Of a stretch of DNA of 64,000 bases, positions 20,791 to 64,000 are shown one piece after another. The notes under the pieces are model-generated. The model saw nothing but the letters and a program-made list of their open reading frames with translations. It made no database searches and was not told the origin of the DNA. Each line of letters opens with the position of its first letter. The first letter of the stretch is position 1. The translations under genes and the position numbers were made by a program. Origin of the DNA: Dipteris shenzhenensis (Eukaryota); assembly GCA_047967505.1 (NCBI GenBank), contig CM106538.1; one strand, 5' to 3'.

Positions 20791-20794
20791 AGAC

Positions 20795-37203: not shown

Positions 37204-37434
37204 GTTATTACATCCATCACTACAACTATCGCTTAAGGTGCTAGCTGCTGCAAGCCAATGCTATCACGAAAAGAAAAATAGGAAAAGAGAGGAAGCACAT
37301 TCTTACCTAGAAATGATGTATCCTGGCACTGGATGATCCCACTCGGAAGAGGAGTTGTTTCATGTCCTAGCCCTATAAAGGAGAGAAAACATACCATTTA
37401 AGGAAACTAATTAGTTTGAAAGGAGGATTTGGAG

Positions 37435-38018: not shown

Positions 38019-41000
38019 TGATGTGATTAGCTACTAAGTACTATCAGTGGCACTCAAGTTGGAGTGAGCAGAGTCATGGTTACATAATAACTAATGAGAG
38101 TGCTCTCAACGGAAGCAAGAACGGAAGAAGGAGAGAGAGAGACAGAGAGCTACACAAGTTTTGGTGGGTGCAGAACCACCCTAATCTTCTTTTTCATTCA
38201 TTTATATATGTGTTTGAGTATTGTACATAACCGGGGTAAAGGCACAATGATCTTTAACCCCCACAACCTCCCACTTAAAGGACAATGTGCCTTTAAGGGA
38301 GAACAACCAGTGAGCATACTATCCAATGCCCATCAATGCATGACAATACTCAAACCGCTCTTCATCAGCATATCTGCAGGGTTATCATCTGTATGAGCCT
38401 TGACAAGCTCTATGCGCTTGTCCTCAAGTACCTCCCTGATGAAATGGTACCTGACCTCAATGTGTTTGGTCTTTGCATGAAAGACCGGATTCCGTGCTAG
38501 TTGAATAGCACTCATGGAATCACTATGCAATGTCGGTACACCTATATGAATCCCCAAATCTCCCACTAGTTGATCAAGCCATATAGCCTCCTTGCAACCC
38601 TCTGTGGCTGCAACATACTCAGCCTCTGTGGTAGACAAAGCAATGCACTTCCGTGCACGAGAAATCCACGACACTGCACCACCTGCAAAGGTGAACACAT
38701 AACCAGAAGTGGATCTCCTACTATCCACATGCCCTGCATAGTCTGAATCTGTGTACCCAAGTACACGCATGTCTCCTTTACTAAAGCAGATGCACATCTC
38801 CTTGGTACCCTTCATGTACCTCATGATGCACTTAACTGCCTCCCAATGCCTCTTTCTTGGATTAGCCATATACCATCTAACAACTCCCACTGCAAATGCA
38901 ATGTCTGGTCTAGTAGCTATCATAGCATACATAAGACTCCCAACCGCTAATGCATAAGGAACCTTGGCCATCATGGCTCTTTCCTCATCTGATTTGGGAC
39001 TATCTATATGACTTAGTTTCACATATGGCCTTTAATGCATCTAGCTCATAAGTATTCTTGCTAGCCAATAGCATATCATCCACATATAGTGCCAAGATTA
39101 TTAGGCTATTATCCTTATCCACATATAGATCAATTTCACTCCTTCTAAAACCCTGGGACCGAATGAAAGCATCAAACTTCTGATACCATTCTCTAGGCGC
39201 TTGCTTAAGACCATAGAGACTCTTCTTTAGCTTGCAAACTAAATGCTCTTTGCCCTTTTCTTCAAAGCCTTCCGACTGCACCATGTAAATTTCCTCATGC
39301 AAATCCCCATGCAAGAAAGCTGTCTTGACATCCATTTGCATAAGCTCCATATTCTCTGATGCCACTAGTCCAAGCATGCATCTAAGTGTGGTCATCTTCA
39401 CAACCGGAGAGAATATCTCATCAAAGTCCACACCCTTCTCTTGCTTGAACCCTTTAGCAACCAAACGAGCCTTGTACTTGTGAAGATAGTGGGAGAGAGG
39501 GAAGGAGTCTCACTTGCAGCTTTCTCACATACACAATGGGGGAATACACACAAAGGTGGAGGCTGAAAACAGTTTTCCTCTTCTTAGTTGTGAAAGCCAA
39601 AAGAACTCTAGTACAAAGAAATAGAAGAACCCTATATGTGGGTCTCAAACCAAACTCAACTAACTAAGGTGGCATACTAACTGAGCCACGAACTAGTGTA
39701 GATAAGGATAGCTGTCATCCCGCTATTATTCATGGGCAGTGTACCAACCGCATCTGTAGCTAACAAGTCGGTGACATAAATGCACAACGGTCACCCTGGC
39801 ATATCACGAGTGGAGCTCGATATCTCAACAGTACCTAGGCACATCATCACCTGTGACCTTCATTTTGTAGACCCATTTACATGGCAATGCTTTCTTTCCA
39901 TGTGGCAAAGAAACCAAGTCCTAAGTCTTATTCTTAATAACTCTGATTGCATAGCATACTCCCACTTGCGTTGATCCCCACGCATCATAGCCTCTTTGTA
40001 GCAAGAAGGCTCCCCGCAATCAGTAAGCATCACATAGTCTACCCCTGGAACAAACTTATCAGGCGGTCTAGACACTCTAGATGATCTTCTCAAGGGCATT
40101 TCAGCTTGTTGTCCCACCTGCATATCAGCAACATTTGGCTCATCATTTCCACCAATAGATGATCCATCATCTACCCTTGATTGTATACCTGTGGGAGTAC
40201 TTGGTGGTACCATTTCTTGCACATTTGGTGCATGGATAGCTTGCTGTCTATCAACATATGCAGGTGGATTCACATCCTGAAAAGTGATTCTCCTCATTTC
40301 CACATGCCTCATGGGTGCCTTATGCATCTTCTTTTCATTGAAGACCACATCATGGCTGCGTATGATCTTCTTTGCTTCTGGATCCCAGAGACGATAGCCC
40401 ATCTCTCCACTTTCACCATAACCCAGAAAGATGCATTTCCTAGACTTAGGATCTAGCTTCTTTCGAAGCTCTTTTGGCACATGTGCATATGCCTCACACC
40501 CAAATATACGCAAATGAGAGTAAGAGGGCTTCTTGCCACTCCATGCCTCTTTAGGAATACCACCATCCAAACTCTTACTAGGTGATCTATTGATCACATG
40601 CACTGCAGTCTTCATTGCCTCAGCCCAAAAACCACCAGAAAGACTTGCATTGGAAAGCATGCATTGCAACCTTTCTTGAATGGTACGGTTCATCTTTTTA
40701 GCAACTGTATTTTGCTCTGGAGTACGAGGGGATGTGAGCTCCCTCTTAATCCCATGTGTATCACAGAAATGCTGAAAGTCATGAGAGAGATACTCTCCAC
40801 CATTGTCAGTCCATAGGCATTTAAGCATTCTACTTGACTGATTCTTAATCAAGGCCAGCCATTTCTGAAATACCTAGAACACATCACTCTTCCGAGCTAT
40901 AGCATAAGCCCACACTTTCCTAGTTGCATCATCAATGAATGTCACATAGTATTCAGCCCCGCCTAATGACCGTGTAGGCATGGGACCGCATACATTTGAA

Positions 41001-42530
41001 TGCACCAAATCAAGCTTTTCAAACTCTTTCTTTCCCCTTCTTTTATGGGCTGATTTAGTCTACTTCCCATAGAGACAGTGCTCACAAAATTCAAAATCAG
41101 AGAAACTCAAATGCGATACATAACCCAAACGGCATAAGAGTTTCATTCCATTCTGGCTCATGTGCCCCAACCTGCAATGCCACAAAGAAGTGCTTGGCTG
41201 CTCGGTTATTGCAACAACATGATCAAATACCCCTGATACATGTAAGGGATACAAAGTCCCACACTTGGCACCCCTGGCCAAAAGCATAGAGCCCTTCTGA
41301 ATTTTCCAACTCTGAAAACCAAAAGTGGTGTGAAAACCAGCATCATCTAGCTGACCCACTGAAATAAGACTCTTGGTCAACTTGGGCACATGTCTCACAT
41401 GGTTCAAAACAAATGCAGACCCATTTGCAAAAGAAAACTTTATGTCACCTGCTCCCACTATGTCATATGCATAGTCATTTCTAAGATGCACACAACCTGT
41501 CTTTCCACTGTCATAAGTGGAGAACCATTCCCTATGGGGAGTAACATGGAATGAAGCACCAGAATCCAAAATCCAATCCTGGGAATATGCATCATCTGAA
41601 GTGGTAAGCAATTCTGCAGATAAACTAGACATGAAGAGAACGTCATTGTCAGTACCATGTGTGACTGCATTGATCTCCTCGATCTTCACTTTTCCTTTGT
41701 CCTCCCTTGGACTCTCTTCCTTTTTATTTGCACCCCAATTTGCATTCTTTTTTTTATCCTTTTGCTCTCTTTTCAGCTTGTAGCAATCCTTTTTCATATG
41801 GCCCTTCTTGCCACAGTGGTACCATTCAATGTTCCGTGCCCTAGATTTGCTACGAGACTTCCCTCTTTCTTGGGACTTCCCCCTGAACTGTGATTTGCCC
41901 CTTTGCACATTTAAGGCTGCATCCTGCTTGTTTCCATCCATAGACTTCCATCTAATCTCCTCGTCCAACAAGCTACCCACAACATCATCAAATTTTAGTA
42001 CTCCATAGGTGCAGAGTTACTGACAGCTGTACGGAAGGTATCCCATGAGGATGGCAATGAACATAAGAGAAATATTGCCTTAGTCTCCGCATCAAAATTC
42101 ATCTTCTGAGCCTGAAGCTGGCTGAAAATAATATTGAATTCATTCAAGTGAGAAGCAATGGAGACGCCTTCCTTCATCTGTAGCTCAGACAACCTCTTCA
42201 TGAGGTAAACTTTATTAGAGGCAGTTTCCTTCTCATAAGTGGCACACAGTTTCTTCCACAAATCTTCCGTAGTCTGCTCATTTACTACTGTGAAATAAAC
42301 TGACTCTGCAAGATGAAGTCTAATAGTAGACTTTGCTAATGCATCCAACTCATTCCAATCATCCTCAGACATATTTGCAGGCTTAGCTTCAATCCCTGCC
42401 AAGGGTTTAATCTGCTTCTTTTGAATAAGCACATCCCTTATTTGTTCTTTCCACAAAGAAAATTTTGTCCCATCAAACTTTTTAATGGTAAAAAACTCCT
42501 TTTCAGACATGGAAGAGGATGCCAGCCCCT
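38019..42530 (-). mobile_element. Ty1/copia element (Tnt1/Tork-like), gag-pol decayed, 5' LTR missing
   Basis: gag from 42510 (KFDGTKFSLWK), zinc knuckle HCGKKGHMKKDC, protease WILDSGAS, LWHCRLGH, integrase TDNGGEY, RT QMDVKTAFLHGDL/LYVDDML, RNaseH DSDYAG/TKHIEVRYHFIRE; PPT then 3' LTR ~38019-38265 (outer edge uncertain); no PBS upstream. Confidence 0.92.
39479..39830 (-). mobile_element. Solo LTR (352 bp) nested in copia RT
   Basis: TG...CA ends; 5-bp TSD GTACT/GTACC (39474-39478, 39831-39835); removal restores KWVYKMKVTGDDVPRYKARLVAKGF. Confidence 0.85.
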
Positions 42531-42539
42531 TCTAAGCAT

Positions 42540-43290: not shown

Positions 43291-43546
43291 GTGCTTCATC
43301 AATGCACTTGGTAATAAGGCATTGCTACATGTATGAATAGAAATCATATATAATACAAAGTGTTGTTTCATTTATTATTAATATTTTTAAAATTAAGTAT
43401 GGACCTCTAGATGGATGGCTCTCTATGGTCTATGAATGATAAAGCGATAAATATTTGTAATTTTAAATTTGTGTGGGTATTTGTATATCTATATTGTGCA
43501 AGATAGAGAGTGTGTGATCTCGAGATAGATAGCAATTAGAGCATGT

Positions 43547-43552
43547 GAGAGA

Positions 43553-43609
<57 letters not shown>

Positions 43610-43669
43610 AGAGTACAATAAGCGACACAAATAATGCACCTGGCCATGAGACAGAGTTAGATGTATGGC

Positions 43670-43703
<34 letters not shown>

Positions 43704-44244
43704 AGTCAGGGACACAAAGGGAGAAAGAGACAAAGGGAGGGGGAGGGATACAAAGGGAGACAGAGAGAGTTAAGATTGCATTTATTCATTTGAACCTCTA
43801 AGTTGAGAAAGAGAAAAATATGAAAGTTAATTAAGGTCTTTGAGAGTACGAGATTGAAGAAAAACCCAGATACAACTGATCCAAAGGGTGGATCCGCTAA
43901 CAAAATACAAAAATTGTATACATGAAATCAATGTCCATGACAATGGAGACGAGGACAGAAAGAGAGAGATGGAGAGTGGGATAGAGAGAGAGAGAGGTAG
44001 AGAATGGGAAAAGAGAGAGAGTTAAGATTGCATTTATTCATTTGCACCTCTAAGTTGAGAAAGAGAAAAATAAGAAAGTTAATTAAGGTCTTTGAGAGAC
44101 TATGAGATTGAAAAAAAACCCATGTACAACTAATCCAAAGGGTGGAGCCGCTAACAAAATACAAAAAGTGTATATGTAAAATCAATGTCCATGACATAGA
44201 TAGCTAAGGGCAACATGGCAACAAGATGATCATCGGGTGTGAGG

Positions 44245-44294
<50 letters not shown>

Positions 44295-44360
44295 CAATAG
44301 GGACACAAGGGGAGGGAAAGAGATAGAGAGACAGAGAGAGAGCAAGGGAGAGGAGGGGAG

Positions 44361-44397
<37 letters not shown>

Positions 44398-44578
44398 AAG
44401 AGAGCAATGAGGGACACAAAGGAAGGGAAAGAACGAAAGATATAATAACATCCTCAGAAGACCTTGTGGGTCTATGAGAGAGAGAGAGAGAGAGGGAGAT
44501 AGCTAAGGGCAACGAGAGAGAGAGAGACAAAGAGAGAGACAAAGAGAAAGGGAGAGAGAGGAGAGGGAGATAGCTAAG

Positions 44579-44612
<34 letters not shown>
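43547..44612. repeat. (GA)n-rich region with ~250-bp direct repeat
   Basis: Multiple (GA)n tracts; GAGTTAAGATTGCATTTATTCATTTG...AATCAATGTCCATGACA at ~43765-43942 and ~44017-44196. Confidence 0.9.
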
Positions 44613-44615
<3 letters not shown>

Positions 44616-44790
44616 TCCAAAGAAAAAATAATAAATATAAAAATATTGTAATTAAGAGCATTTTTAAGGGCAATATCCATTTATAAAGTACACTTCTAAG
44701 GTCATTTTCACATTTTCAATTTTCCAGTCTTGAGTAACCTTGCATTTCATAACCGGCCTCTTTCATCTTCCCGAGCATCCTCCTACACTC

Positions 44791-47039
44791 ATGGCTTCCC
44801 CTAGAGAGGCTTTTGACTAGTGGATTTCATCCATTGATTCCCATGCCTCTGCAGATCAGGTTTATCCTATCTTCTACAAAGCATTCCATCTTGAGTCACA
44901 CTTGAGTGCTCTTCTTCCTGTTGATAATCCCTCTCTTCAATTTTTCGATAGACTTATCCATGGGCAATCTGTCGCGATTGCTAACTCCCTCACCAATGGG
45001 TTTCATTGGATATTTTGAGCTATTTTGACCAGAGTGCTAACTTCAAGAAGAGATTAGGTAGGGCCATGGATAATGTCCCTATCTCTCTCCATGAGTACAC
45101 TATTACCATTGGGGATGATTCATCTTCCCCAATTCATTTGATTGAGAGAGATGCAACCCTTACCATTCTCCTTGCGACTAGCAAGCTTGATGAGGATATT
45201 GGCGAGCAACCCAAGGGTCCTGCATCCACAAGTGGTGGAGTAGGTCCATCAACAAGTGCTGGAGTAGGTCCATCAACAAGTGGTGGAGGAGATGACCTAA
45301 ACCTAGACTTAGAGCCTAAGGAGCATACTATTAGCCTCGCTGAGGAGTAAGTTGAAAGCGAGGTCATCTTATCTTCATATCCGACTCGTGCATATCCATC
45401 CTCTACCTATAACCTAGATGAGGCAGCAAGCAAGCCACACCTTGCTTCGGTTGATCCAATCAGGATTGAGGGTGAGGAACACCTTACTCGAAGTGATGGA
45501 AGAAACCAGTCTCCAAGAGGACGAGGTGCTCTGTCGGCTCTCGAATTGACACTTTCGATGATGTCATTGACTTTGATGCTCTAGTGAATCTAGCAATCGA
45601 TGAGATTGCACACTTTGATGACTCGAGCCTCACCGATCTGGAGGCAATCCAACTAACACAGAAGGCAATTGAAGATGCCACACCAGAGTACGACATGTCT
45701 GATGTGAGTAGTTCATGAATTTGAAGAGGGAATTGTTCGGGGATAGAGATGAAGAAGCTAGCACCTCAAGCTAAAATGAAGTTCAAGACCAACCACAAAA
45801 GGGAGTCCAGTTGGACACTGTAGCTGACACACTCTGCGATGAGGTAGAAAAGGTATGTAGCTTTGCTAGCTTCATCATGTGATCCAAAATCATCAGTATA
45901 ATTCTAGGTTCCATTTTAGGAACAAAAATCATTGCTTTTTCTTGAATTGGTAGGGAATAAAAAATAGGGTTTAGGGTTTAGAATAGAAACCCAAGCAAAT
46001 TTTATGATTTTAAACCCGACATCCTGCCACTGCCACTTGCCCCTAAATTTTTGGAAACAATTAGGGTTATGGTTTTGTAATTTAGGAAAAAAAAAGTTCT
46101 AATCAAATTTGGGAGGCCACTAACACCCTAGCAACCATGTGCATCATTTTCAAGCCAAAACCCCCCCTGGAAATCCTAAATTTGACATCATGCGACCAGA
46201 GCCCTGTTAAATGATGCACATGGCTGCTAGGGTGTCAGTGGCCTCCCAAATTTGATTTAGGGAATGAAAAATAACATTGAGAGTTTAGAGTACAAAACCC
46301 AACCAAATGTTATGATTTTAAACCCAGGACATCCTACCATTGTCACTTGCCCTGCCACTTGCCCCTGACACATGCCCGTGCCACTTGCCCCTCGCACTCC
46401 ATTTATGTAAATAGGGTTATGGTTTTTTCACAGGTAAAAATCATATCTTTAAGAAATGATTTGGGAGACCACTGGGACCCTAGCAACCATGCCCATCAAT
46501 TTTATGCAAAAAAAAACCCTGCAAGCCCAAAATCTAACATCATGCGACCAGAGCCCAGCTTCTGTAGAAATTGGGTGCGACCAAAAGCTGGGCTCTGGCT
46601 GCATGATGTCGGATTTTGGGCTTGCAGGAGTTTTTTTGGCATAAAATTGATAGGCATGGTTGCTAGGGTCTCAGTGGCCTCCCAAATCAGATTTCTTAAA
46701 GATATGACTTTTACTTGGAAAAAAACCCTTATTCTTATTAATTCTTGAAAAATGACATTTTATTAATTTATATAATCTTTGGATTTTGATGTAATATGTT
46801 GGTTGTAGGATATTTTATGGGTTGATGAGTATACCGGATGCAAGGGTGGAACCAGAGGGTCTTCTGGTGGGGGGATGGCATCAATCAGACTACATCAACG
46901 GAGTGGCTCAATACATTTTGGTGTTCCATCGACAATTATTGCTAGATGGAAAGATAAATATCATGAAGTTCAAGGTCCTCAGTCAGATGGTGAAGATGAG
47001 GCCCATTCATCCTATTGCCGATCGTGTTGTTTTGATTAG
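44791..47039 (+). pseudogene. Two-exon decayed gene, acidic/disordered exon 1 and HTH-like motif in exon 2
   Basis: Donor AAG|GTATGT at 45853, acceptor TTGTAG at 46809; phase-0 join reads ..RSGSIHFGVPSTIIARWKDKY (46899-46961), an HTH-type pattern; an alternative frame runs to 47223. Confidence 0.4.
46101..46727. repeat. Two related intronic inverted repeats (foldbacks)
   Basis: Arms 46101-46149/46209-46257 and 46421-46564/46582-46727 (17-nt loop); both contain ATTTGGGAG(G/A)CCACT..ACCCTAGCAACCATG. Confidence 0.92.
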
Positions 47040-48537
47040 GCGTAGTGTAGCTTTATTTTTGTTTTCAGACACACAATTTGGTCCGCTTTATAGTATTATA
47101 GCTAGTGCAGGGCTAGCTGGCATTACAGATCCCTTGGCTATAGAGAATGAAATTGTGCAGCCCTCTTTGCTTCAGCAAAAGCAAAAAAGGGATCTAAGCC
47201 AAGCAAGAAGAGGCGTAGACTAGAGTAGCTTAGGCATTCAAGCTTTAATGATCTTTATGATATTACTCAATGTAAATAAAGAATACAATTTTCAAATTAT
47301 TTTCTCTTCCCATTTACAGAACATTCTTTCCTTTACTATGTTAAGTAAAATTGAGTATTATTTCCTTTTGCATGTTCTATTAAGATGTGATGTTTATTAT
47401 TTCATTTTGCTTTTGTATACATTGAGAGTGCATGTAAGTAAATTAATAGATTGCAAATACATTGAAAATAAATTTAAGATTGCACATGCAAAGACAATTC
47501 TAAAAAAGACATTTTATTATATTGATGCCCATAGGCAGAGTACTTGTAAGGTAGATGCCCATAGGCAGAGTACAAGATAGATGCCTGTAGGCAGAGTATA
47601 AGGTGGAGCATACAAAATAAGACCGTATTAGATAATTCGGGAAAAACCCAATTCCCAGAATGGCAGTTTTGGAAGAAATTGTAGCACCCCTCAATGAAAA
47701 AACAGGAGAAATATGTGAAAATAGACTAGATAGCCATTCATGAAGTGTGAAATATCAACTACATTCTCAAATAATAAATAGAATATCAGTGTCTAAACTA
47801 CGTTATCATCAACAAAATAATAAACTTTGAAACCCATTTGAGTTAGATTCATCTCGTGAGCCATAGTGATGTTCAAAAACACCTTCATAATAGCGAGTCT
47901 CTGGAATTTCCATTGATATTGAGACTCGCTTTTGTTGTGAGCATTCTCATTTGAAAATCTCCAAAACACCGTTTAAAAAATGTAGAGTGTAATTAATAAC
48001 CATGAGTATTGCAATGAAAATGCACAGGCTCTTTAACTTAGTAAGATATGTAGTTGATGGAAAATCAAGATATGTAGTTGAGGAGAATGTATGCAAGATA
48101 TGTAGTTGATGGAAAATCAATGGGCAATGACAAGCATTTGATGTAATTTAGGTGGCAATGACAATCATTTATTGTGCACTTTCAATGTTTAGACTGACTA
48201 GCATTATTGTAAAACGATAACTTTACATGTCATGTTGATTACTCATTGCAAAGTAAAAAAGTACACTTTAGGATGAAAACATAACTTCTTGTTGATACAC
48301 CATTGAAATCCCTGAAATAAATCATGATTCCAAAGAAACTCTCAATTTCTAGCCCCAAAGAGAATGGCACCGGAAAGAATGGCACGAGAGACACTCCTTC
48401 AAAATACATTATGAATGTAGTTATGAACATGTTTGCATATTATTCACACACAACAATTACGCACCAATTTACATAGTTGGCAAGAAAGTAGTAATTCCCA
48501 TAAGTAATGATTATATAAAGAAATACAATGTTATTAT

Positions 48538-51500
48538 TCAAAACTCATAGTCTGCAAATAGCTTCTCTCCTGCATGTATATCATCTATGGATTCAATACA
48601 AATGTGACCATATTCTACAATATCTATGTTCATCATGGGGTCATACCAAGGTGGAACATCAGGGGAAAATACATAACAAACATTTGGCTTTACATTGGTA
48701 TTTCTATTGCTGTTAATAAATCCTGCCACATTGCCATATTGAACATCACCAACAATATGCACCATATCCTTCATAGGGACAGTAGGGTCCTCTTGGATAG
48801 AGTACTTCTTTAGCCTTGGATGAACTCTACATAATTCCTTCCAGTCTCTGTAGGAGTACTTGTCACCTCCATAATGGAGAATAGTAGTCCATTTCTTGAT
48901 GGAGCCATGCACAAACACACCTGTAATGGTTGACTCATGCACCTCGAAAGCCACATTTTTTATCCAGAACACTTCGTTGATAGGGACAGGTAACTTTGGT
49001 GGTCCAAATGGATCTCGTTCTGGTATGTACCTACTCAAGCTTGATTTGAACGTATATCTATCTACATCACAAAAGAAAAATTCAATTAGCTACAACAACA
49101 GTTATATATATCGAGATAAAATCAAAAAACACTTTGACATATGTACCTTCATGAAAATACACATTCTGTAGTCGGTTTATGTAGCCCTTAGCAATGTATT
49201 TCTTGATATAGCGACCTTTGTACCCTAGGTCTATAGCCAATTGAGAAACTTGCATAGATTCATGCTAGAGAGTTGTGGAGCATTCCTTAAAAGTCTTATT
49301 TGGGATGCATTGAGTTTAGGCACCTGGCCATCACCACCATGGGTTGCCCTACCACCTATATCCCTCTCTCTTAGTTGATCTACAAAAGGAAGATTTCTTG
49401 TTTTATATTCCATTCTTGACCATGCATGATTTTCCTCCCTCCATTCATCAATTACTTTCTGGACAAGGTTGAAATCCTTATGCCCCTCCATCATAGGTAA
49501 TTGTCCATACCGATTTGTCTCAATCATGCTGCGCACATCTTTAGTCTCATCGAGTTGTAGTAAGTACGGCATCAACTCTCTCAGTAGAATATTATCATCC
49601 TTGTCTTGTACATCAAACGTTGAAGGAAATATGCAATTTGATGGAGGGCTAATGCAAGCCTTGTATGGGGAGTCATCAACAAGGATTGTCCTTCTAGCAT
49701 CACATCCAAATGCCTTTGAGATTTTTGCCAAGGGTTTGAACATTGCCTCAACACCAACCTTGTCAGGCCTATTTATCCTCGTCTTACTGTAAGTGTAGCA
49801 TCCTTGTTGAGACCATATAACAAAGAAAGGGAGGCTCTCATTTGCATAATTTTGCAGCTTTCCTACCATATCAAGTACGTTATGCTCCATCGCAGTTGAC
49901 CAGATACCTACATTAAATCTTTGTAGCAAGATTTTAAGAAATTCTATGCACCCAGGACGAACAACCATATAACTATTTTTGCCATGCATAATGGACGGAT
50001 GTATTGGAGACTTGAATAGGCAGCAACTTAATAACAGGCCATTCAAGTCTAATATGATTGTTAATCGTGGCATATCCAAAGAAATTGTATGTGGATATAG
50101 ATCCAAATTCTCCTTGAAGTTGCTGGCTTCTGACTCATCCAAATTGTCAACAGGTGCTATGATTTCATACATGTTTGCAACAACAATAAGATTATCTAGT
50201 TTTGTCCCCAATGTTGAGACAGTACGTTCATCCATGTTCTCTTCTAAAAGTATAGGATTCGTGATATTCCTTGCAATTTTCTCCATTTTTGGGGTTATGT
50301 TTTCTTCTATACCTCCTGTATCCATCGCGTAATTGATAGTCCCCAGTTTGGGTGGTATGTTGTCCTCTACATTTGATGTCTCCACATCCTTCCATGCATC
50401 ATTGGTCCCTGTGGAAGTTGAGGAATATAGAAATATTTTGATTCTTTAGAGTGTATTCAACAATGTCGATGCACAAAAGCATATGAAACTAATAAATAAC
50501 AATAAAGTATGAGAATTATCCATCGTCGTTCATCACTGATTCCATTGTATTTTTGGGGAATGGCAAAAGTGCCAATCTCTCTAAAGTTCAATTGAGAATG
50601 CAAATAGTGCAACCTTTCTCTCTGAACTCATAGAGAGAATGGCAATAGTGCTATTCTTCTCTTGAGGTGGTGCTAGTGCCATTTTACATATAAGGTTATG
50701 GAGAATGCCACTAGTGCCTTTCTCTATACCCTCATTGGGAGGAGAGAATACTACTAGTGCCTCCCCCCATGTCCCAAAAGAAATGTACAATGCATGATCT
50801 AAAAGCATAGATACTGTATTACTTTGGTCCAATAGATTTGTAGAAAGCACCCAAATCAAAACTTTGGTAGCATAGTTAATACTATACAATTTTTAATCTC
50901 TGTAATGCTTTCAACTGACATAGATTCAAGAAAGGAACATAACAGTATTACCATTTCTACATAACCACAAAGAGAGAATGGCACTAGTGCCATTCTCCAT
51001 ATGAGGTCGCATAAAATGTTAATAGTACCTCTTATGTATAACCCGACATAGGGAGAATGACACTAGTACCATTCCCCATGTCATTATGTCACGCAATTTT
51101 ATCATACCTAATGTTTAATATCTTTAATATAATGAGAGTATGTGCAATCGAGAAAATCCATAAAAGTCATATTATTTTGAAACTGAATACACAAGGCATA
51201 AATGAGTAGCTAAAGACCTTGTTCCAAATCTTCCAATGTAATCTTTGGGATAGCTTCAAGATCTGCTTCAGTTAAAGGTCGCAAGTCTTCAATGTGATGC
51301 TCACCCTCTTTAATTCCTTCATCGATAGGTGAATCAGCTCTTTGTGTCTCAAGAGGCCTCTCAATGCTAGACCAAATCTTAATATGGGGATTATTTGATG
51401 CATGTGCCACACACATAGCCTCGACCTCTGTCGCCTGTTGGGATGTCTTCACCAGTGAGATCACTTTTCTTTTGCTTGACAATGCTTGTAATGCCACACA

Positions 51501-54212
51501 TCCATTAGTAAAGACGTCAACAACAACTTCATGTTCCCTACTACAATAGCACCTGATGCACTCCTTGATGATGCCATGCTTCACAACCGCCTCTTTTTCA
51601 TACTCATCGCCCTCATCAGAATAAAGAATATTGTCCTCAATTATTGTGTATGGCCTTGCGATTTCTAACATGTGCTCAAATCCATCAAACCCATCATGTG
51701 AGCTGACAAATGACAAAAAACAAAAGGTCTCAGACAAACCCTTTTGTGCACTATCCGATTCATGGATAACACCCACAAACCTTCTATGCCAAAATCGAGC
51801 CTCTATCATTGCTTCCTTGAGATTTACCATCTCTATCATTGTCATAAATGATAGCAATACATACTGTGACGGAGTGGCAACGGTCTCCATCAAGCCACAG
51901 AGCAACTTCTTGAAGGCATCCTTATCCCAACACATGCCTTTGGCAGATCCCTTTGAGGTGTCAAGCACACACAAGCTGATTGGAAGTTGTCCCTTGGAGT
52001 GACGTGTTAGAAAGCTCTCCCCCTCCATCTCCATGTTCACTTGAATAATTGTCCAAGGAAAACAAGACTGAGATGTAGACTTGTTACCCTCTATTGAACT
52101 AATCACCCAATCAACATAGATTGACACGGCTTTTGGGAAATCAGGTGTGGACTTGCCAACTTGCAGCTTCTCTTTGACCCATGACTCACATGAACCCTTG
52201 AAGCTCTGATAAACAATTGAATCAATTTTGAAGTAAGTTGCAAGGGCATCCCATGTTTGATGTTGGGGCGAAGGGTGACGTGAGTTGAACTCCTTGATGA
52301 GTGCTTCTTTCAGGGCTCTATCATGCTTAATCTCCATTGCCCATTGAGACATTTCAATGGAGTCCTTGTCTTTGCTTGACTTGACAAAGACTATTTCTTT
52401 AGACTCAATCTCTGCTTGAAGTGCACGTACATCTTCGTCTTCCAATCCTAGCAGACACCTCATATATGTTATTGTGGGATTTCGACCCTCAAGATCACCC
52501 TGCTTCACCAATGTCAAAATCCTAATCCATTGTTCGTAGATGTCATCATCGTATGTGACCATGTGTGTCCTTGGTAGCAAAGTTTGTGCCCATCGATACG
52601 CTTGCAACTCTGGCAAAATTCTATATAAAAAAATCAAAATCATCTTAGACATTCCTCTAATCCAAATCCTGTAATAGAGATAATAATGACACTAGTGCAA
52701 TTCTCCCATTACCATGTCAAAAGCATGACTTGGTAACTAGAAGAATGGCACTAGTGCCATTCTCACATCAAGGAATTGACACTACTATCATTTCTTTTAC
52801 AAATCCATAAACATTCTTGAAATAAAAAATGCATACAAAACAAAGTTTATTACTCACATCCCAACTTTGTCAATCTTTATGCCCTTTGACAAGGCCTTGG
52901 GCTAGTTTCTTTGGTCGTCTGAATGCAATCCACTGTGCCCTTAGGTGTTGTAAGATATCGATATATGGTTGAGTTTTCAAAACGGTCTGTGCCTCCATGT
53001 TGGCCATTGATGATATCTTACAACTTGCTTCAACTGGTGCATTGACAACAATTCTCGCCTTCCTCCATGTATAGAAACCTTTTCATTGATTGAAGGCTTC
53101 TCCATGTGCTTTAGTTATAAATATCCTTGCAGCATAAATCGAATGCTGCCCTGCGAGAATCCAATAATTATACTCCTTTAACTTTTCCACCTTTATCTCT
53201 TCCTTGGACATCGGAGTATTTGTGCCTATGTGGTAAGGCATAAGATATGCACATGTTGCAGGAGGTCATGCATTCATTGCAAAACTCTTGACCAAGTCAC
53301 TGACATAGCTAAGGGTCAATGTCCTGTACACATATTGGCTTGGTGCTCTAAAGCAATTCATCACTGGGATCAACACCTCAAACTCCAAACCAAATGGGAA
53401 GTACTCTATGTACTCCATCAAGCCTGTCATACTTGTGTCCTTCCTTTCCAATTTCTTTTGTAGTGCCTTAAAGTCAACATCTGGCTGGATTTTCTTATAT
53501 TGGATGATTTCTCACCATGTCCTGTTATATGTGTCTCACCACTCCCCATTGCATCACCTCCACTTCTAGTTCCATTAGTGACTATTCCCGTACCTCCCTG
53601 TTTTCCTCCTAAAGTTGTCTCTTTGTCTTTAGCCTCTAGTTTATCCCCAATGCTTGTTTTTCCATCTGACCTTATTTCCTTCTCACCTGTTGTTTCCTCC
53701 TCACTGGTCTCTCTAGCCTTCTCTTTCAATGTGTGAGCAATGTGTTCTGAGACACTTGAGAGCTTGATCCCTCCATCACTTTTCTTGGTTCTTTTCGAAA
53801 CTTTTCTACTCTTTTTTATATCTTGCTTTATCCCTTTTGTTACCAAATCAAAGCTTTCTAATATTTGTTGATTGGTATAATTTTCTTGCTCATTAATCCA
53901 ACCCCTAGATATCATCGTGTCCTCCCCAGTAGCATTCATCCTCGCATGATCAAAACAAGCAGGATCCAATTGATACACATTGCCTCCCAATGTATGAATT
54001 TTGAGAAAAGGAACGTTGTCTTTCTCGGTATCCTCCATCTCTTTAACTTTTCCAACATCTTCAAAAGTTGCTCCTTGGATGTTCACAAAACAATGCACTT
54101 TATGGAGTTTTTGGAGTTCGTTATTGTATATATCCAAAAACCATCCTCTTCTAGAACTAACTCCATCATAAACTGACACCTCTCGAACCTTTCTCTTTCC
54201 CTTGCTAGCCAT
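48538..54212 (-). pseudogene. Multi-exon multidomain gene: ParB/Srx-like + degenerate N4/N6 DNA methyltransferase-like + NIF/FCP1 (HAD) phosphatase-like + SET domain, ~1,500 codons, lightly disrupted
   Basis: Exons 54212-52858, 52620-51218, 50408-49147, 49061-48538. YRTL..V.DLVKSF..YWILAGQHSIYAAR..ARIVV..ISSMAN; SLCVLDTSK..KHGIIKECIRCYCSREHEVVVDVFTNGCVALQALSSKRKVISL; IILDLNGLL..RPGCIEFL..VGIWST..TILVDDSPYK; GVF..ILHYGG..GNVAGFINS..PNV..IHAGEKLFADY. Junctions 2-3 and 3-4 are phase-compatible; three in-frame TGA stops and at least two frameshifts. Confidence 0.75.
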
Positions 54213-54619
54213 TCTTGCAATGTTCTGTTAACAAAAGAAGCAAGGACACAATGAAATGTATAATAGAAAATCATAAACTTAGTAGGAAATATTACAACCA
54301 CAATGCAACTTCTATTAACAAAATAACCAAGGTGAAGCAACTTATATATGCATTATGAAAAACTACACCAACACAGTAAGCAAATATACACAATATCAAA
54401 GTTAAGATGGTTATAATAAAGAATGGTATTCGTGCCATTCTCCAACATAATATGATGTTAGAAGAGTGTCACAAATGCCATTGAACACATGGATTGTGAG
54501 TTTGTTCAGAATGGCACAAGTGCCATCCTCCGTGAGAGTTTAAGGATAATGCCACTGGTGCCATCCTCCATGATGTTAAGGAGAACGGCAGAAGTTCGAT
54601 TCATCACATGGAACCACTA

Positions 54620-57600
54620 CCATTCTCCACTTGTGGCATTCTACACAGAGATTGACACAATTCCATATGATCTCTACGCAGTGCAGACAGTGATCACTAC
54701 ATAGAAGAATGCACATTTGAGTTTAAGATTCCTTATGCATGTTTTCAGGTCATGGCATGAGATTGGCACCACTGCCATTCTCCACTGGTGGCATTCTCCA
54801 CATAGATTGACACAATTCCATATGATCTCTACACCGCGGAGATAGTGAACACTACATAGAAGAATGCACATGTGAGTTTAGCATTCCTTGTGAATGTTTT
54901 CAGGTCATGGTATGAGATTGGCACCACTACCATTCTCCACTGGTGGTATTCTCCATAGAGATTGACATAGGCTTCTCAATGCCATTTCTTAGGGCCTAAT
55001 AAGAGATTGGCACCACTGCCATTCTCCACTTGTATAGATGTTTACCCTACTATTCTAGGAGGGGTATTCCAGTGATCATAGGAGAGTGGTGTCCGATTCC
55101 AATCCACATGTGAGTTTGATGATCTCAGTGTCATTATGTAGTTGCCAGCATGAGATTGGCATCACTGCCATTCTCTGCTAGTGGTAGTCTAGACAAACTG
55201 AACCTATAGATTGACATTCCACTAATTTTATTGGCTGCAGTAGGATAATGGCAAAAGTGCCAATGCACATGTGAGTTTAGGATTCCTTATGCATGTTTTT
55301 AGGTCATGGTATGAGATTGGCACCACTGCCATTCTCCACTGGTGGCATTCTCCACAGAGATTGACACAATTCCATATGATCTCTACACAGCGGAGACAGT
55401 GATGACTACATAGAAGAATGCACATGTGAGTTTAGGCTTCTCAATGCCATTTCTTAGGGCCTAATAAGAGATTGGCACCACTGCCATTCTCCACTTGTAC
55501 AAATGTTTACCCTACTATTCTAGGAGGGGTATTCCAGTGATGATAGGAGAGTGGTGTCTGATTCCATGTCTGATTCCAATCCACATGTGAGTCTGATGAT
55601 CTCAGTGTCATTATGTAGGTGCCACCATGAGTTTGGCATCACTGCCATTGTCCACTAGTGGTAGTCTAGACAAACTAAACCTATAGATTGACATTCCAAG
55701 GCCTAATAAGAGATTGACACAATTCCATATGATCTCTACATAGCGGAGACAGTGATCACTACATAGAAGGATGCACATGTGAGTTTAGGCTTCTCAATGC
55801 CATTTCTTAGGGCCAGCATGAGTTTGGCATCACTGCATTCTCCGCTAGTGGTAATCTAGACAAACTAAACCTATAGATTGACATTCCACTAATTTTATTG
55901 GCCGGAGTAGGATAATGGCAAAAGTGCCAATGCACATGTGAGTTTAGGATTCCTTGTGCATGTTTTCAGGTCATGGTATGAGATTGGCACCACTGCCATT
56001 CTCCACTGGTGGCATTCTCCATAGAGATTGACACAATTCTATATGATCTCTACACAACGGAGACAGGGATCACTACATAGAAGAATGGCAATGCACATGT
56101 GAGCACATTACCACTAGCGGAGAATGGCAGTAGGATAATGGCAAAAGTGCCAATGCACATGTTAGTTTAGGATTCCTTGTGCCAATGCACATGTGAGTTT
56201 AGGCTTCCCAATGCCATTTCTTAGGGCCTAATAAGAGATTGGCACCACTGCCATTCTCCACTTGTACAAATGTTTACCCTACTATTCTAAGTTTAGGCTT
56301 CACAATGCCATTTTCTAGGGCCTAATAAGAGATTGGCACCACTACCATTCTATGCTTGTACAAATGTTTACCCTAATATTCTGAGAGGGGTATTCCAAGG
56401 ATCATAGGATAATGGTGCCCGATTCCAATCCACATGTGAGTTTGAGGATCTCAATGTCATTATGTAGTTGCCTACATGAGATTGGCATCACTTCAATTCT
56501 CCACTGGTGGCAGTCTAGATAAACTAAACTTGTATATTGACATTCGACAAATTTTATTGGCTATAGTAGTATAATTGCAAAAGTGCCAATGCACATGTGA
56601 GTTTAGGATTCCTTATGCCATTTTTAAGGTCTAGGTATGCTACCATTCTCCACTGGTGGCATTCTCCACAGAGATTGACACAATTCCATATGATATCTAC
56701 ATAGCGGAGACAGTGATCACTACATAGAAGAATGCACATGTGAGTTTGATGGTCTCAGTGTCATTATGTATTTGCCAGCATGAGATTGGCATCACTGCCA
56801 TTCTCCACTAGTCGTAATCTAAACAAACTAAACCTGTAGGTTGACATTCCACTATATTTATTGGCTGTAGTAGGATTATGGCAAAAGTTTCAATGCACAT
56901 GTGAGTTTGATGATCTCATTGTCATTATGTAGCTGCCAGCATGAGATTGGCATCACTTCCATTCTCCACTAGTGGTAGTGCCAATGCACATGTGAGTTTA
57001 GGATTCCTTGTGCATGTTTTCAGGTTATGGTATGAGATTGGCACCACAGCCATTCTCCACTGATGGCATTCTCCATAGAGATTGACACAAATCCATATGA
57101 TCTCTACACAGCGGAGATAGTGATGACTACATAGAAGAATGCACATGTGAGTTTAGGCTTCTCAATGCCATTTATTAGGGCCTAATAAGAGATTGGCACC
57201 ACTGCCATTCTCCACTTGTACAAATGTTTACCCTAGTATTCTAGGAGGGGTATTCCAGTGATCATAGGAGAGTGGTGTCCGATTCCAATCCACATGTGAG
57301 TTTGATGATCTCAGAGATTGACACAATTCCATATGATCTCTACATAGCGGAGACAGTGATCACTACATAGAAGAATGCACATGTGAGTTTAGGATTCCTT
57401 GTGCATGTTTTCAGGTCATGGTATGAGATTAGCACCACTGCCATTCTCCACTGGTGGCATTCTCCATAGATATTGACACAATTCCATATGATATCTACAT
57501 AGCGGAGATAGTGATCACTACATAGAAGAATGCACATGTGAGTTTAGGCTTCTCAATGCCATTTCTTAGGGCCTAATAAGAGATTGGCACCACTACCATT

Positions 57601-58904
57601 CTCCACTTGTACAAATGTTTACCCTAGTATTCTAGGAGGGGTATTCCAGTGATCATAGGAGAGTGGTGTCCTATTCCATTCCACATGTGAGTCTGATGAT
57701 CTCAGAGATTGACACAATTACATATGATCTCTACACAACGGAGACAGTGATCACTACATAGAAGAATGCACATGTGAGTTTAGGATTCCTTTATATGTTT
57801 TCAGGTCATGGTATGAGATTGGCACCACTGCCATTCTCCACTGGTGGAATTCTCCACAGAGATTGACACAATTCCATATGATCTCTGCACATGTGAGTTT
57901 AGGCTTCTCAATGCCATTTCTTAGGGCCTAATAAGAGATTGGCACCACTGCCATTCTCCACTTGTACAAATGTTTAGCCTACTATTCTAGGAGGGGTACC
58001 CCTGATCATAGGAGAGTGGTGTCCTATTCCATTCCACATGTGAGTTTGATGATCTCAGTGTCATTATGTAGTTGCAAGCATGAGATTGGCACCACTGCCA
58101 TTCTCCGCTAGTAGTAGTCTAGACAAACCGAACCTATAGATTGACATTCCACTAATTTTATTGGCTGCAGTAGGATAATGGCAAAAGTGCCAATGCACAT
58201 GTGAGTTTAGGACTCCTTGTGCATGTTTTCAGGTCATGGTATGAGATTGGCACCACTGCCATTCTCCACTGGTGGCATTCTCCACAGAGATTGACACAAA
58301 TCCATACGATCTCTACACAGCGGAGACAGTGATGACTACATAGAAGGATGCACATGTGAGTTTAGGCTTCTCAATGCCATTTCTTAGGCCCTAATAAGAG
58401 ATTGGCACCACTTCCATTCTCCACTTGTACAAATGTTTACCCTACTATTCTAGGAGGGGTATTCTAATCATCATAGGAGAGTGGTGTCCGATTCCAATCC
58501 ACATGTGAGTCTGATGATCTCAGCGTCATTATGTAGGTGCCACCATGAGTTTGGCATCACTGCCATTTTCCACTAGTGGTTGTCTAGACAAACTAAACCT
58601 ATAGATTGACATTCCACTACATAGAAGAATGCACATTACCACTAGCGGAGAATGGAAGTAGGATAATGGCAAAAGTGCCAATGCACATGTGAGATTGGCA
58701 CCACTGCCATTCTCCACTGGTGGCATTCTCCATAGAGATTGACACAATTCCATGTGATCTCTGCACATGTGAGTTTAGCCTTCTCAATGCCATTTCTTAG
58801 GGCCTAATAAGAGATTGGCACCACTGCCATTCTCCACTTGTAGAAATGTTTACCCTACTATTCTAGGAGGGGTATTCCAGTGATCATAGGAGAGTGGTGT
58901 CCTA
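54620..58904. repeat. Modular tandem array of ~150-160-bp units (3 unit types, ~465-bp higher-order repeat)
   Basis: About 25 copies of GAGATTGGCA(C/T)CACTGCCATTCTCCAC, e.g. at 55003, 55152, 55313, 55468 (spacings 149/161/155) and 57935, 58082, 58243, 58398; second shared node CACATGTGAGTTT. Confidence 0.95.
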
Positions 58905-61035: not shown

Positions 61036-61814
61036 TGAGCACCATTTGCACTCCTTTTGCCCCTCCACCTAGATCAAGTCATATCTCTTGATCCAGGAAG
61101 AATTTGAGGGTGCTCCAAAAAGGAAAGTCGCTCGTTTTTTTGTGCTCTACGCGCTCGTTACATCAACGCACATTTCGGCACAAGTTACACTCACATTTGT
61201 GCCTCGCCGACAAAACCACTTCCTTCACGCACATTTGCCTCTACATCGACGCATCTGACCCAGCACTTAAAAAGAACAAAAGAAAAGGAATTATTTGTTG
61301 CTCTTTCATCGATCGACGGTTGGTTTAGATCTAGATCAGAGTAGACTAGATTGCCATAGAGGGGACGCTTTGAATTCCCCAAGTTGCCAATCTAAGCCAT
61401 GCCCAAAATTCCTGACTAGTTTCTACTCGGAGTCAGTCCATACGCTCACATCCGATTTCACATCATTACATTACCTAAAACCTTACGTTCATCAGTTCAG
61501 TGAGCAGACTTCAGAGTACAGAGGCATTGCAGATTGATTCAGTGGGCAGATAGCACTTGATTTCACACACACATGCCACCATTCTAAAGCCTATTTGGCT
61601 ATCTCATGGCATTGTGCACATCATTTTTCAGCCTTGTAAAGCCTCTTGGCTATTCTCGGCATCATTGCCACAAGCCTTGTAACACAGATTAGATCTTATA
61701 TACTGCAGTTCTATCTTCACCGACGGTACAGAGATTTCACTTGGCATCTTCAGTGTATTTGCAGTTGATTCATATAGAGTTTTTCAGGACACTTTTGAGT
61801 ACATTGTTTGCACC

Positions 61815-64000
61815 ATGTCGACTAGCAACCTCAATCTGGAGGCATCTGCTAAGTTAGACAACTCCAATTATGGTACATGGAAATACCGAATGGAGACCAT
61901 TCTTGTGCTTCAGGACAAATGGGAGTATGTCGATGGATCTATACCCAAACCATTGGACGATCCAGCCACCAGTAGCTCTACTCCATCTGTTGTCACAGCA
62001 CCAGCAACGGAATCTACATCGGGATCTACATCTACACAAACAGTTTCCACACCAGTAGCAGATCCTGCCATTGCCTGAGCTCAAGCAGAATGGGATAAGA
62101 AAGACAAGTATGCCTATCACCTGATCAAGCAAAACGTGCAAGATATCATGCTAGGACAGCTCAACATAGTTAAGACGTCAAAAGAAGCATGGGATATGTT
62201 CACAGCTCTCTACGAGTCCAAGAACACATCCAGGATTCTCACCCTGAGAAACCAGATCAACCAGAGTTTCTGCAATAGCAATGAAACCGGTCATGCTTAT
62301 GTACTCCGCATCAAAGACTACAACAATCAACTTGCAGCAGCAGGAGAGACTATGAATCCCACAAAAATGGTTCAAGTAATCCTGAATGGACTAGGAGAAG
62401 GATATGAGAATCTAGTCCAGAGTATTGCCATCCAATGGCAAATTCCAACACTGGAAGAACTTCAGTCAGTTCTACTTGGTGAAGAACTCAGGACTCAGGC
62501 CATTCAAGCACATAAAGGTCATTCTAATGATCAGGCATTCACAGCTTCAGACAGAAGCAGAGGCAAAGGCAGAAACAGAGGTAGATCATATCAGAAAAGT
62601 GGTAATCATCAACAAAGTCAAAATCAGCATCATCATCAACATCATCCTCATCAGCAACATCAGAATCAGCAAAGAGGAAATCATTCCAACCGAGGAAGAT
62701 TCCAAGGACGAGGGAATGCATCCACCAATGTGTCAAACATTCAATGCAACTACTGTCACAAGTTTGGACACTATGAAAGAGATTGCTGCAAGAAGCAGTA
62801 CGACCAAGGCGGTCAATCCAGCAATAATCGAGGGAATTCCCGAGGAAGAGGAAATCATCGTGGTGGACATTCTAGTCACAGTCATTTTGCAAATGAACAT
62901 GGAAATATGTTTCTTGCAAGTGAGGAATTGCATGAGACTGATACAATGCACCTAGACACTGATTTCAATCCCAAAGAGGATTTCAGCTATCAAGTCGACC
63001 AAGTGGAACAGGATCCTTGGTACATCAACAGCGCTGCATCATCTCATATGACAAATCACTAGGAATGGTTCATAGAAATGAATCCATTAGAAGGTCAAAA
63101 GAATGTCATCTACACAGCAGACAATACACCGAATCCGGTTCAAGGGACAGGTGTTATCCCTATGAACAATTTCACTGGTACAAAAGGATTAGTCAAAGAT
63201 GTGCTCTATGTTCCAAAGCTCAGCAAGAACCTTTTGTCAGTAGGTCAAATGAAGGAACACAACTACAAAGTCATCTTCGACGGTGATGAATGCACTATCA
63301 GAGACAAATCCAAAAGAGGTCAGCTAGTAGCAAAAGGTGTCAAGGAAGGACGCTTATACAGGATGCTAGCTACAGTACCAGATAAGCATGCCATGTCAGC
63401 TCAAATGCAACAGATGCCACTATCTGCAAAATGGCACAAGAGATATGGTCATGTCAACTTCAAGTACTTGTTAGATCTCAGGAATCAGAATATGGCAATT
63501 GGGATTCCGAAGCTACAGTTTCTTGGAAAAGTTTGTGAAGCATGCTGCTTCGGCAAACAAAAGCGAACCAACTTTGTCAGAAGTACCTCTCATGCACGAG
63601 GTATTCTTGATTTGATTCATATAGATGTATGGGGTTATGCCCAGACCTGCAGCATCAATGGTTCACTTTATTACTTGACCTTCATCGACGACTACAACAG
63701 ATATTGTTGGGTCTACTTTCTGAAAGAGAAATCTAAAGTGTTTGCCAGATTTCAAGAATTCAAAGCCATGGTAGAAAACCAGACAGGCAGAAAGATCAAG
63801 GTCATGAGATCAGACAGAGGAGGTGAATACATGTCTTCAGCATTCATGAACTTTTGCAAAAATCACGGCATTCGAAAGACAATTCACATGTGCAGAAACT
63901 CCTCAGCAAAATGCAAGAGCTGAAAGGAAGAATGGGACTTTAGCAGACAGTGCTAATGCTTAGTGAAAAGCATCTTTCGAATCAGTATTGGGCAGAAGCA
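61815..64000 (+). pseudogene. Copia gag-pol (partial), with in-frame stops
   Basis: KLDNSNYGTWKYRME, UBN2-like gag, CNYCHKFGHYERDC, protease WYINSAASSHMT, WHKRYGH..CEAC, integrase HIDVWG/FIDDY/RSDRGGEY; stops at 62076-62078 and 63060-63062, frameshift near 63890. Confidence 0.93.

Follow-up and report, generated by a model that had tools for sequence, protein, structure and literature searches.

Decayed copy of a fern-type ParB-methylase-NIF gene, a possible land-plant counterpart of algal transposon accessory genes

Gene model, relatives and decay

We analysed a stretch of 64,000 nt from Dipteris shenzhenensis (contig CM106538.1, assembly GCA_047967505.1), referred to below as the window, which is plant-like DNA rich in transposable elements with ~40% GC. 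On its minus strand, between 54212 and 48538, seven stop-to-stop open reading frames (ORFs) assemble into a single four-exon gene model of ~1,500 codons (Table 1), and this gene lies inside a block of ~10.5 kb (48.36-58.83 kb) that is marked by inverted repeats. The encoded product of ~1,500 amino acids would, by our preferred reading of the exons, carry in order an N-terminal region, a ParB/sulfiredoxin (Srx) fold, a helical region, a methylase fold, a NIF domain and probably a SET domain. We consider the locus to be a decayed copy of a fern-type ParB-methylase-NIF gene, probably SET-bearing, which would be the land-plant counterpart of accessory genes known from algal transposons, and we give this explanation a probability of about 0.55.

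All three introns of the model read GT..AG. The exon 2/3 junction (CAA G/GT, exon 2 end 51218, to AG/GG ACC, exon 3 start 50408; the slash marks the splice point) is in frame, and so is the exon 3/4 junction (GAA G/GT, end 49147, to AG/AT AGA, start 49061) given a frameshift near 49255, both as proposed in an earlier note made from the sequence of the window, every listed feature of which was located at the position given. That note also described a phase clash between exons 1 and 2, which does not stand: the donor GAT/GT at 52858/52857 and the acceptor AG at 52622-21 are compatible in phase 0, and the apparent problem arises because the long exon-2 ORF is entered through a frameshift near 52565, within an ACACACA stretch. 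Read in phase 0 from this AG, exon 2 gives NFARVASVSMGTNFATKDTH, which matches the relative P0040 (E 1e-4). Moreover, the corresponding junction in a second relative, the 4265-nt public contig L001, reads WD/gtaagt...ag/AFLRMAKMGAAPSWIAKQAHMVTY and matches the window peptide NFARVASVSMGTNFATKDTH.

Relatives were collected with the exon-2 ORF as query. A word-based protein search gave no matches, and a full HMMER search of 1.84 billion representatives then recovered 63 cluster representatives at E<=1e-3, 38 of them at <=1e-10, with a best value of 2e-74 at 33% identity. The relatives that carry a species name are all from ferns, nine gene models of Adiantum nelumboides and one protein of Ceratopteris richardii, and the fern relatives are carried in public records as 'hypothetical protein'. 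Closer copies were found among contigs of the sequencing run X1, a presumed RNA run, which are 95-99% alike with differing indels, indicating several copies; these contigs leave out 49085-50603, introns 1 and 3, and everything beyond 54090. By these comparisons the gene belongs to a multi-copy family, and the only named members of this family come from ferns. Two of the Adiantum gene models, P0003 and P0033, are annotated as fused to RT_RNaseH_2 or Tf2-1 SH3 pieces, and these fusions probably arose in gene prediction, by merging with adjacent Ty3-type elements.

The relatives also bear on the question of whether the exons belong to one gene. The N-terminal region and the ParB, methylase-like and NIF parts all have collinear counterparts in P0064 (Adiantum MCO5596946.1, 1125 aa), and P0020 spans the ParB-like, exon-2 and NIF parts; exon 3 is reached by 7 of the 84 fetched relatives, and all seven also contain exon 2. 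Exon 1 (416 codons) and exon 2 (470 codons) of L001 are both intact, and the 82-nt GT-AG intron between them follows the same WD codons; protein identities to the window are 43% in the ParB part and 29% in exon 2. Because P0064, P0020, the seven relatives that reach exon 3 and the L001 intron agree, exons 1-3 are one gene with a conserved intron.

The window copy itself is a pseudogene and cannot make the encoded protein, because it carries at least six disabling lesions: three in-frame TGAs, one 16-nt deletion and two further frameshifts. The exon 1 ORFs at 54227-53427 and 53511-53266 are in different frames, and a run-X1 contig has 16 extra nt behind 53502 that exactly restore the frame. Across the frameshift near 49255 the NIF ORF is continued by a tail of 39 codons, which matches the C-terminus of P0020 (E 8e-6). 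The three TGAs of exon 1 had been described in the earlier note as each one C>T change from CGA; the second and third align to Arg in relatives, and the first aligns to Lys or Arg and is AGA, not CGA, in the run-X1 contig. The observed/expected ratio of CpG has a value of 0.31 for the gene, 0.15 for the upstream repeat array, 0.26 for a neighbouring Copia element and 0.41 for the whole window; the low values over gene and array therefore fit methylation-driven decay. Substitutions between the window and the run-X1 contigs, a small sample in which paralogues are mixed, comprise 11 synonymous and 16 non-synonymous changes of 27, a pattern that gives a hint of some constraint.

Table 1. Features of the gene and of the repeat-marked block in the window (relatives and contigs as named in the text)
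Feature	Position	Strand	Basis and remarks
Upstream array	54415..58835	.	4.4 kb; degenerate units of 94-391 bp, each with inverted repeat TTGGCAnnnnTGCCAT or ATGGCAnnnnTGCCAT
Start codon ATG	54212-54210	-	Sequence
Exon 1	52858..54212	-	Conserved N-terminal region, K/E-rich linker, ParB-like domain
Conserved N-terminal region, ~110 aa	53883..54212	-	30-35% identity to N-termini of P0064, P0067, P0081, P0011 and L001
ParB/Srx-fold domain	52972..53382	-	AlphaFold2 model and structure match; YWILAGQHSIYAAR where ParB has GERRxRA
In-frame TGA no. 1	53266..53268	-	K or R in relatives; AGA in run-X1 contig
In-frame TGA no. 2	53083..53085	-	R in P0065, P0020, P0040
In-frame TGA no. 3	52870..52872	-	R in P0065, P0040, P0033, P0064
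Intron 1	52621..52857	-	GT..AG, 237 nt, phase 0; 2 inverted-repeat copies; position matches L001
Exon 2	51218..52620	-	Helical region and methylase-like domain; frameshift in CA run ~52565
Beta-class N6/N4 DNA-methylase fold	51369..52070	-	AlphaFold2, Foldseek, VIA; motif IV D-T-S-K, motif I VVDVFTNG
Intron 2	50409..51217	-	GT..AG, 809 nt, phase 1; 5 inverted-repeat copies
Exon 3	49147..50408	-	Acidic linker, NIF domain, conserved C-terminal tail; frameshift near 49255
NIF/FCP1-like domain	49531..50064	-	Pfam PF03031, E 2.9e-20; D-L-N-G-L at DxDxT position
Proposed intron 3	49062..49146	-	GT..AG, 85 nt, phase 1; sequence; match boundary of run-X1 contig at 49062
Exon 4	48538..49061	-	SET domain (48921-48547) and stop codon; join to exons 1-3 candidate only
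Stop codon	48540-48538	-	Sequence
Two half-sites, GAGAATGGCAC and AGAATGGCAC	48360..48385	.	Close behind the stop codon; the motif-bearing block ends here on its lower side

Domains of the encoded protein

The earlier note had assigned a ParB-like domain to exon 1 and a beta-class methylase to exon 2 from short motifs, and we compared both parts with known structures through AlphaFold2 models, which were template-free and built from alignments of family members only. The ParB-like model was made from an alignment of eight sequences and reached a predicted local distance difference test (pLDDT) of 67.8, which is middling. The top rows of a Foldseek search with this model were Noc, ParB, PadC, KorB, sulfiredoxin and SbnI, with a best E of 1.2e-3, and VIA aligned it with M. 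xanthus ParB (7bnk_B) at Z 10.8 and a root mean square deviation (rmsd) of 2.2 A over 95 residues, the second-best match being 7bnr. In a search of 48,161 representative chains that was independent of Foldseek, all eight chains at Z>=5 were of ParB/Srx type, among them PadC, KorB, SerK, pNOB8 ParB, Srx, SbnI and Atu1540, and unrelated rows stayed at or below 2.5; the ParB-like call is thus borne out at the level of the predicted fold. Chromosomal ParB carries the arginine patch GERRxRA, part of its CTP (cytidine triphosphate) switch. At this position the window reads AGQHSIYAAR, with GQHS in place of GERR, and the relatives read [SAD]G[QL]H[SF], some of them DGQHS, so that GERRxRA is absent here. 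The conserved region at the N-terminus gave no match in a Pfam search. Behind the ParB-like part, the AlphaFold2 model shows a confidently predicted helical stretch (exon-2 ORF residues 45-205), to which no match could be assigned. A weak match to the FliA/WhiG sigma factors (E 0.022), possibly a helix-turn-helix, was seen at 477-571 of P0064, which corresponds to about 52500-52200 of the window.

The exon-2 model has a pLDDT of 83.3 and a predicted template modelling score of 0.71, and its residues 208-441 match the beta-class N6/N4 DNA methylases, with a Foldseek E of 6.1e-6 to M1.HpyAVI. By VIA, residues 210-440 superimpose on CcrM with Z 15.2 and an rmsd of 3.4 over 200 residues; ranks 1-20 are all N6/N4 DNA methylases, and MT-A70 enzymes come next at Z 10.7 or less. 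The order of elements is that of the beta class, with a strand ending in D244 (motif IV) ahead of a strand-loop-helix at 389-405 (motif I). The methylase call is therefore sustained as a call of predicted fold. PF01555 gave no Pfam match in the window ORF, in L001 or in the 24 distinct relatives scanned, and PDB profile searches with two family alignments gave chance-level rows only. In beta-class methylases the catalytic loop has the consensus (D/S)PP(Y/F), and the loop that binds S-adenosylmethionine (SAM) has FxGxG. The Asp of motif IV is kept in 23 of 26 aligned members, and PP[YFW] follows it in none of the 26, the window reading D-T-S-K; the SAM loop is DVFTNG in the window, with one Gly, and F-G-D-G in L001 and P0005. 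Hence, because the DPPY loop is lost in every aligned member, DNA amino-methylation by this fern family appears unlikely, and the degenerate catalytic motifs that the earlier note had remarked on prove to be family-wide for motif IV.

Searches of a viral structure library matched N4/N6 methylases of phages and of Pandoravirus, as well as a phage 'ParB/Sulfiredoxin' protein. A recent insertion from a giant virus or phage, that is, an endogenous viral element bringing in ParB, methylase, NIF and SET genes, would account for such top matches to Pandoravirus N4-methylases and phage ParB-methylase proteins. We nevertheless rejected this explanation as very improbable, since the gene is split by three spliceosomal GT-AG introns, including one that L001 shares, its family is multi-copy and 25-45% divergent within ferns, and its composition is the same as that of its surroundings; moreover, the 74 matches from a pattern scan of IMG/VR included none confirmed as a relative.

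The NIF and SET calls of the earlier note are both upheld by Pfam above the cut-offs. NIF (PF03031) scored 73 bits against a gathering threshold of 21.8, covering profile positions 1-160 of 160, and a local match to human SCP1 was found at E 5e-4. The likeness to the FCP1/SCP1 phosphatases of the RNA polymerase II (Pol II) C-terminal domain (CTD) thus extends over the full-length profile. The catalytic motif of these phosphatases is DxDx(T/V), whereas the window and P0064 have D-L-N-G-L, in which the second Asp and the Thr are replaced, P0004 has S-L-C-G-L, and the NIF domain is here embedded in a 1,500-aa protein. SET (PF00856) in exon 4 scored 28.7 bits against a gathering threshold of 22.4 (E 1.9e-6); the Atlas score for SET was 0.97, with 22 of 30 matches in the SET set, and a PDB sequence search with the SET exon gave no match at E<=1. 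The SET motifs are NH(S/C)xxPN and ELxxDY. In the window, for which one copy and one contig are available, they read INSNRNTNVKPN, where Ser takes the place of His, and EKLFADY, where the Tyr is kept.

Private inverted repeats, mobility and rival explanations

The locus is marked by a perfect 24-bp palindrome, GAGAATGGCACTAGTGCCATTCTC, and its variants, which in the window take the form TGGCA-n4-TGCCA. Within the window, the 20-nt core with up to three mismatches has 22 matches, all of them in 50558-58832 with none expected, and ATGGCAnnnnTGCCAT with up to one mismatch has 31 matches, 29 of which lie in 50560-58830, as compared with 0.3 expected; all 23 exact matches of the half-site GAGAATGGCA fall in 48360-58825. 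The repeats are placed in introns 1 and 2 (copy numbers in Table 1) and in the array directly 5' of the ATG, with none in exons. L001 has a private motif of its own, the 21-bp TTGGACAAGTGGTGGACCTTG, whose 13 copies lie 5' of the ATG (four) and after exon 2 (nine); the L001 exons and the whole window are free of it. At L001 1-480 and 3380-4265 this motif stands in a longer unit context, ..CATGCTTCAATAGAGTTAGC-motif-AAACCAAACCACTCATACT.., which forms tandem units of ~55-120 bp in gene orientation. Because two distant members have private arrays in the same positions, the gene and the repeats appear to belong together. In both members a pyrimidine-rich ..cag acceptor-like site is found 6-10 nt 5' of the ATG (window 54222-54233, L001 528-539), which therefore suggests a 5'-untranslated-region intron in both, putting the upstream repeat array in the promoter or in the first intron. 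Hairpins that resemble miniature inverted-repeat transposable elements (MITEs) are also present at 46101-46740 of the window, with 108-nt arms that are 90% complementary and 17 nt apart, together with related arms of 49-104 nt; their sequence is unrelated to the palindrome GAGAATGGCACTAGTGCCATTCTC.

If the locus is a decayed accessory gene of this type, the ParB-like part and the helical region behind it would bind the private 20-24-bp repeats, and the SET domain (histone-lysine methylation) and the NIF domain (Pol II CTD binding or dephosphorylation) would be brought to the element's own DNA, while the methylase-like fold would bind DNA or SAM and have no catalytic role. The same logic has been proposed for the ParB/methylase/SET accessory genes of giant algal DNA transposons. 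In its strongest form, which we regard as doubtful, each member would be a self-addressed chromatin regulator whose ParB-like domain recognises a private 20-24-bp repeat multiplied in its own promoter or 5' region and introns, protein and site would co-diversify between lineages, and SET and a Pol II CTD-binding NIF module would set the epigenetic or transcriptional state of the own element.

Several observations weigh against the explanation as a decayed accessory gene. Searches of Pfam (E up to 1-5), PHROGs, NCBIfam and PDB profiles gave neither a ParB-type match for the ParB part nor a methylase match for the methylase part, so both assignments rest on predicted structures; the family is nameless to the profile libraries and PDB sequence searches tried, yet clearly resolved in the predicted structures. 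SET is carried by none of the 84 fetched relatives, and P0004, P0020 and P0064, in which the C-terminal tail is present, end 3-5 residues past the splice point of the window. The run-X1 contig that contains the SET exon has upstream sequence that does not match exon 3 of the window at >=85%. As to mobility, no transposase, terminal inverted repeat (TIR) or target-site duplication is tied to the block within the 64-kb window, and nothing convincing came from a short-word comparison of the flanks (44.6-48.6 against 58.7-61.7 kb) or from scanning the entire window for CACTA-type TIRs with 16-mers. Remnants of a transposase (Transposase_21) come no closer than 30 kb and are located at 15-18.2 kb and 1.5-4.6 kb, and introns and ORFs that are conserved across fern genera fit a host gene family equally.

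The points on SET lead to the alternative that the locus contains two units, in which the ParB-methylase-NIF gene would end near 49082 and the SET ORF would belong to, or be captured from, another gene or element and would only seem spliceable. We judge this to be a substantial alternative that falls somewhat short of even odds: the absence of SET from the fetched relatives, the three full-tail relatives that end just around the proposed donor and the joining of a 98%-alike SET exon to a different upstream sequence in the X1 contig are what it would predict, whereas the SET ORF is on the same strand as exons 1-3, the 85-nt GT-AG interval is in phase, and the ORF opens 28 nt before the acceptor of intron 3. 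The 1086-nt X1 contig matches 48546-49062 at ~98% identity, and this match ends exactly at the predicted acceptor with the phase-1 G kept, which also argues against two units; the loose end of 30 nt in this contig has no match in the window. Moreover, the half-sites of the motif run on 3' of the SET exon at 48360-48385, and a PF01555+SET fusion is described for PAG2 of a red alga (10.1101/2025.02.11.637652). On this evidence we lean towards the SET exon being part of the transcript of exons 1-3. Thus, of the single spliced four-domain gene proposed in the earlier note, the union of N-terminal, ParB, methylase-like and NIF parts holds, as they occur in single polypeptides, and the addition of SET is left as a candidate that the relatives do not share.

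The mobile-element origin proposed in the same note is plausible. Because no transposase or termini are tied to the block, a host gene family remains a serious rival, although we hold it to be unlikely. By this account the locus is the pseudogene of a non-mobile fern family, in which a phage-type ParB-methylase module, acquired long ago and joined to NIF, would have been retained for a host role in chromatin or transcription, and the repeats would be unrelated MITE-like insertions. Such a family would explain why the position and phase of intron 1 are conserved between the window and L001 despite 43% protein identity, why the L001 ORFs are intact and why synonymous changes against the X1 contigs are commoner than expected under neutral drift; the search recovered a single Ceratopteris model, and the lack of a nearby transposase or TIR points the same way. 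On the other hand, at least nine divergent gene models are present in one fern genome (Adiantum nelumboides), 2 of 20 scanned relatives are chimeric with retroelement domains, and the CpG decay resembles that of the neighbouring Copia element. Furthermore, two distant members, each with its own motif array placed alike both upstream and in intron 2, would be hard to obtain through chance MITE insertions.

Other elements surround the gene in the window. Remnants of EnSpm/CACTA type lie on the minus strand at 1519-4555 and 15089-18219 (Transposase_21, E 1.3e-38 and 1.6e-46; DUF4218, E 9e-27), each broken into several ORFs, and no link from them to the ParB-methylase gene was found. ORFs that by eye resemble Copia-type gag, integrase and reverse transcriptase are present at 38333-42531 (-), 29845-31850 (-) and 61683-63923 (+), with one or more elements nested between the ParB-methylase gene and the CACTA remnants. 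Long tracts of low complexity, rich in GA/CT, occupy 20000-21000, 36100-37260 and 43480-44680; they are strongly skewed between the strands, with a GC skew of 0.60 at 36-38 kb, and contain long spurious Ser/Leu/Pro ORFs.

Comparison with known systems

Genes for ParB, N6/N4-methylase and SET accessory proteins have so far been reported in green, red and brown algae, on giant transposons, and have been proposed to let an element bind and mark its own DNA. One of the nearest parallels is in the red alga Bostrychia, whose giant Plavaka elements (EnSpm/CACTA) are described as carrying PAG2, a PF01555+SET protein, and PAG3, a protein with a ParB-like domain and a 2-oxoglutarate (2OG) oxygenase (Petroll et al., bioRxiv, 10.1101/2025.02.11.637652). 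According to the same work, tandem arrays of inverted repeats adjoin the PAG3 gene, its ParB-like N-terminal domain has 7BNR as best HHpred match, and PAG2 and PAG3 are also found on Zisupton, Mutator and Fanzor elements. The window shares with them the ParB-like, methylase and SET modules and the inverted-repeat arrays in repetitive DNA, and 7BNR is also the second-best VIA match of our ParB-like model. In contrast to these two genes, the window gene fuses ParB, methylase-like and probably SET modules in one polypeptide, has NIF and lacks the 2OG oxygenase, its methylase is invisible to Pfam and has lost DPPY, and its host is a land plant of fern type.

In the brown alga Ectocarpus, the 21.5-kb element Sola1-1_Ec32 encodes a 1104-aa protein of ParB-like and DNA-methylase parts, which was suggested to be a possible new accessory class that binds and modifies its own transposon (Dinatale et al. 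2025, PMC12477816). Compared by description, the part of that account at hand reports no NIF or SET, a Sola1 transposase adjoins the gene, and the methylase is predicted to be active; green-algal cases are attributed there to Iyer, Abhiman and Aravind 2011. A search of the literature for ParB in ferns found no paper on ParB among the matches listed, and other searches gave algal work only, the supplements of the two algal papers lying outside this search. The view of the earlier note that no such protein has been described is thus too broad, since ParB+methylase and PF01555+SET accessory proteins of giant algal transposons are published (PMC12477816; 10.1101/2025.02.11.637652); the NIF insertion and the all-in-one fusion were not found in the literature searched.

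Further back, several eukaryotic methylases have been traced to phage ParB-Tls loci (Iyer, Zhang and Aravind 2016, PMC4738411), and the ParB-N6_N4 fusions of phages and plasmids share with the window gene the N-to-C order in which a ParB N-domain precedes a beta-class methylase. The structural matches of the window models are CcrM, M1.HpyAVI, TTHA0409 and the phage 'ParB/Sulfiredoxin' protein. The window gene differs from these fusions in being eukaryotic with introns, in having DTSK for DPPY and GQHS for GERR, and in the addition of NIF and SET. The anti-silencing protein of VANDAL elements in eudicots, as cited in 10.1101/2025.02.11.637652, is a functional analogy, in that a protein of the element alters the epigenetic state of its own element; it has no domain in common with the fern-type protein, and its action was shown experimentally, whereas that of the fern-type system is inferred.

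We favour the view that the ParB/methylase/SET accessory-gene theme is represented in land plants by this family, as a variant distinguished by its NIF insertion and its private repeat arrays. If this is true, the idea of accessory genes extends to vascular plants with very large genomes. Distinctive of this variant would be the fusion of four modules, the added domain resembling a Pol II CTD phosphatase and the loss of the catalytic loop of the methylase in every aligned member, and the two distant members with their two private arrays provide a directly testable hypothesis of protein-DNA specificity. Should the members of the family also prove to be self-addressed regulators, land plants would have their first case of such a system, which would be a fused and catalytically rewired descendant of the phage ParB-methylase cassette.

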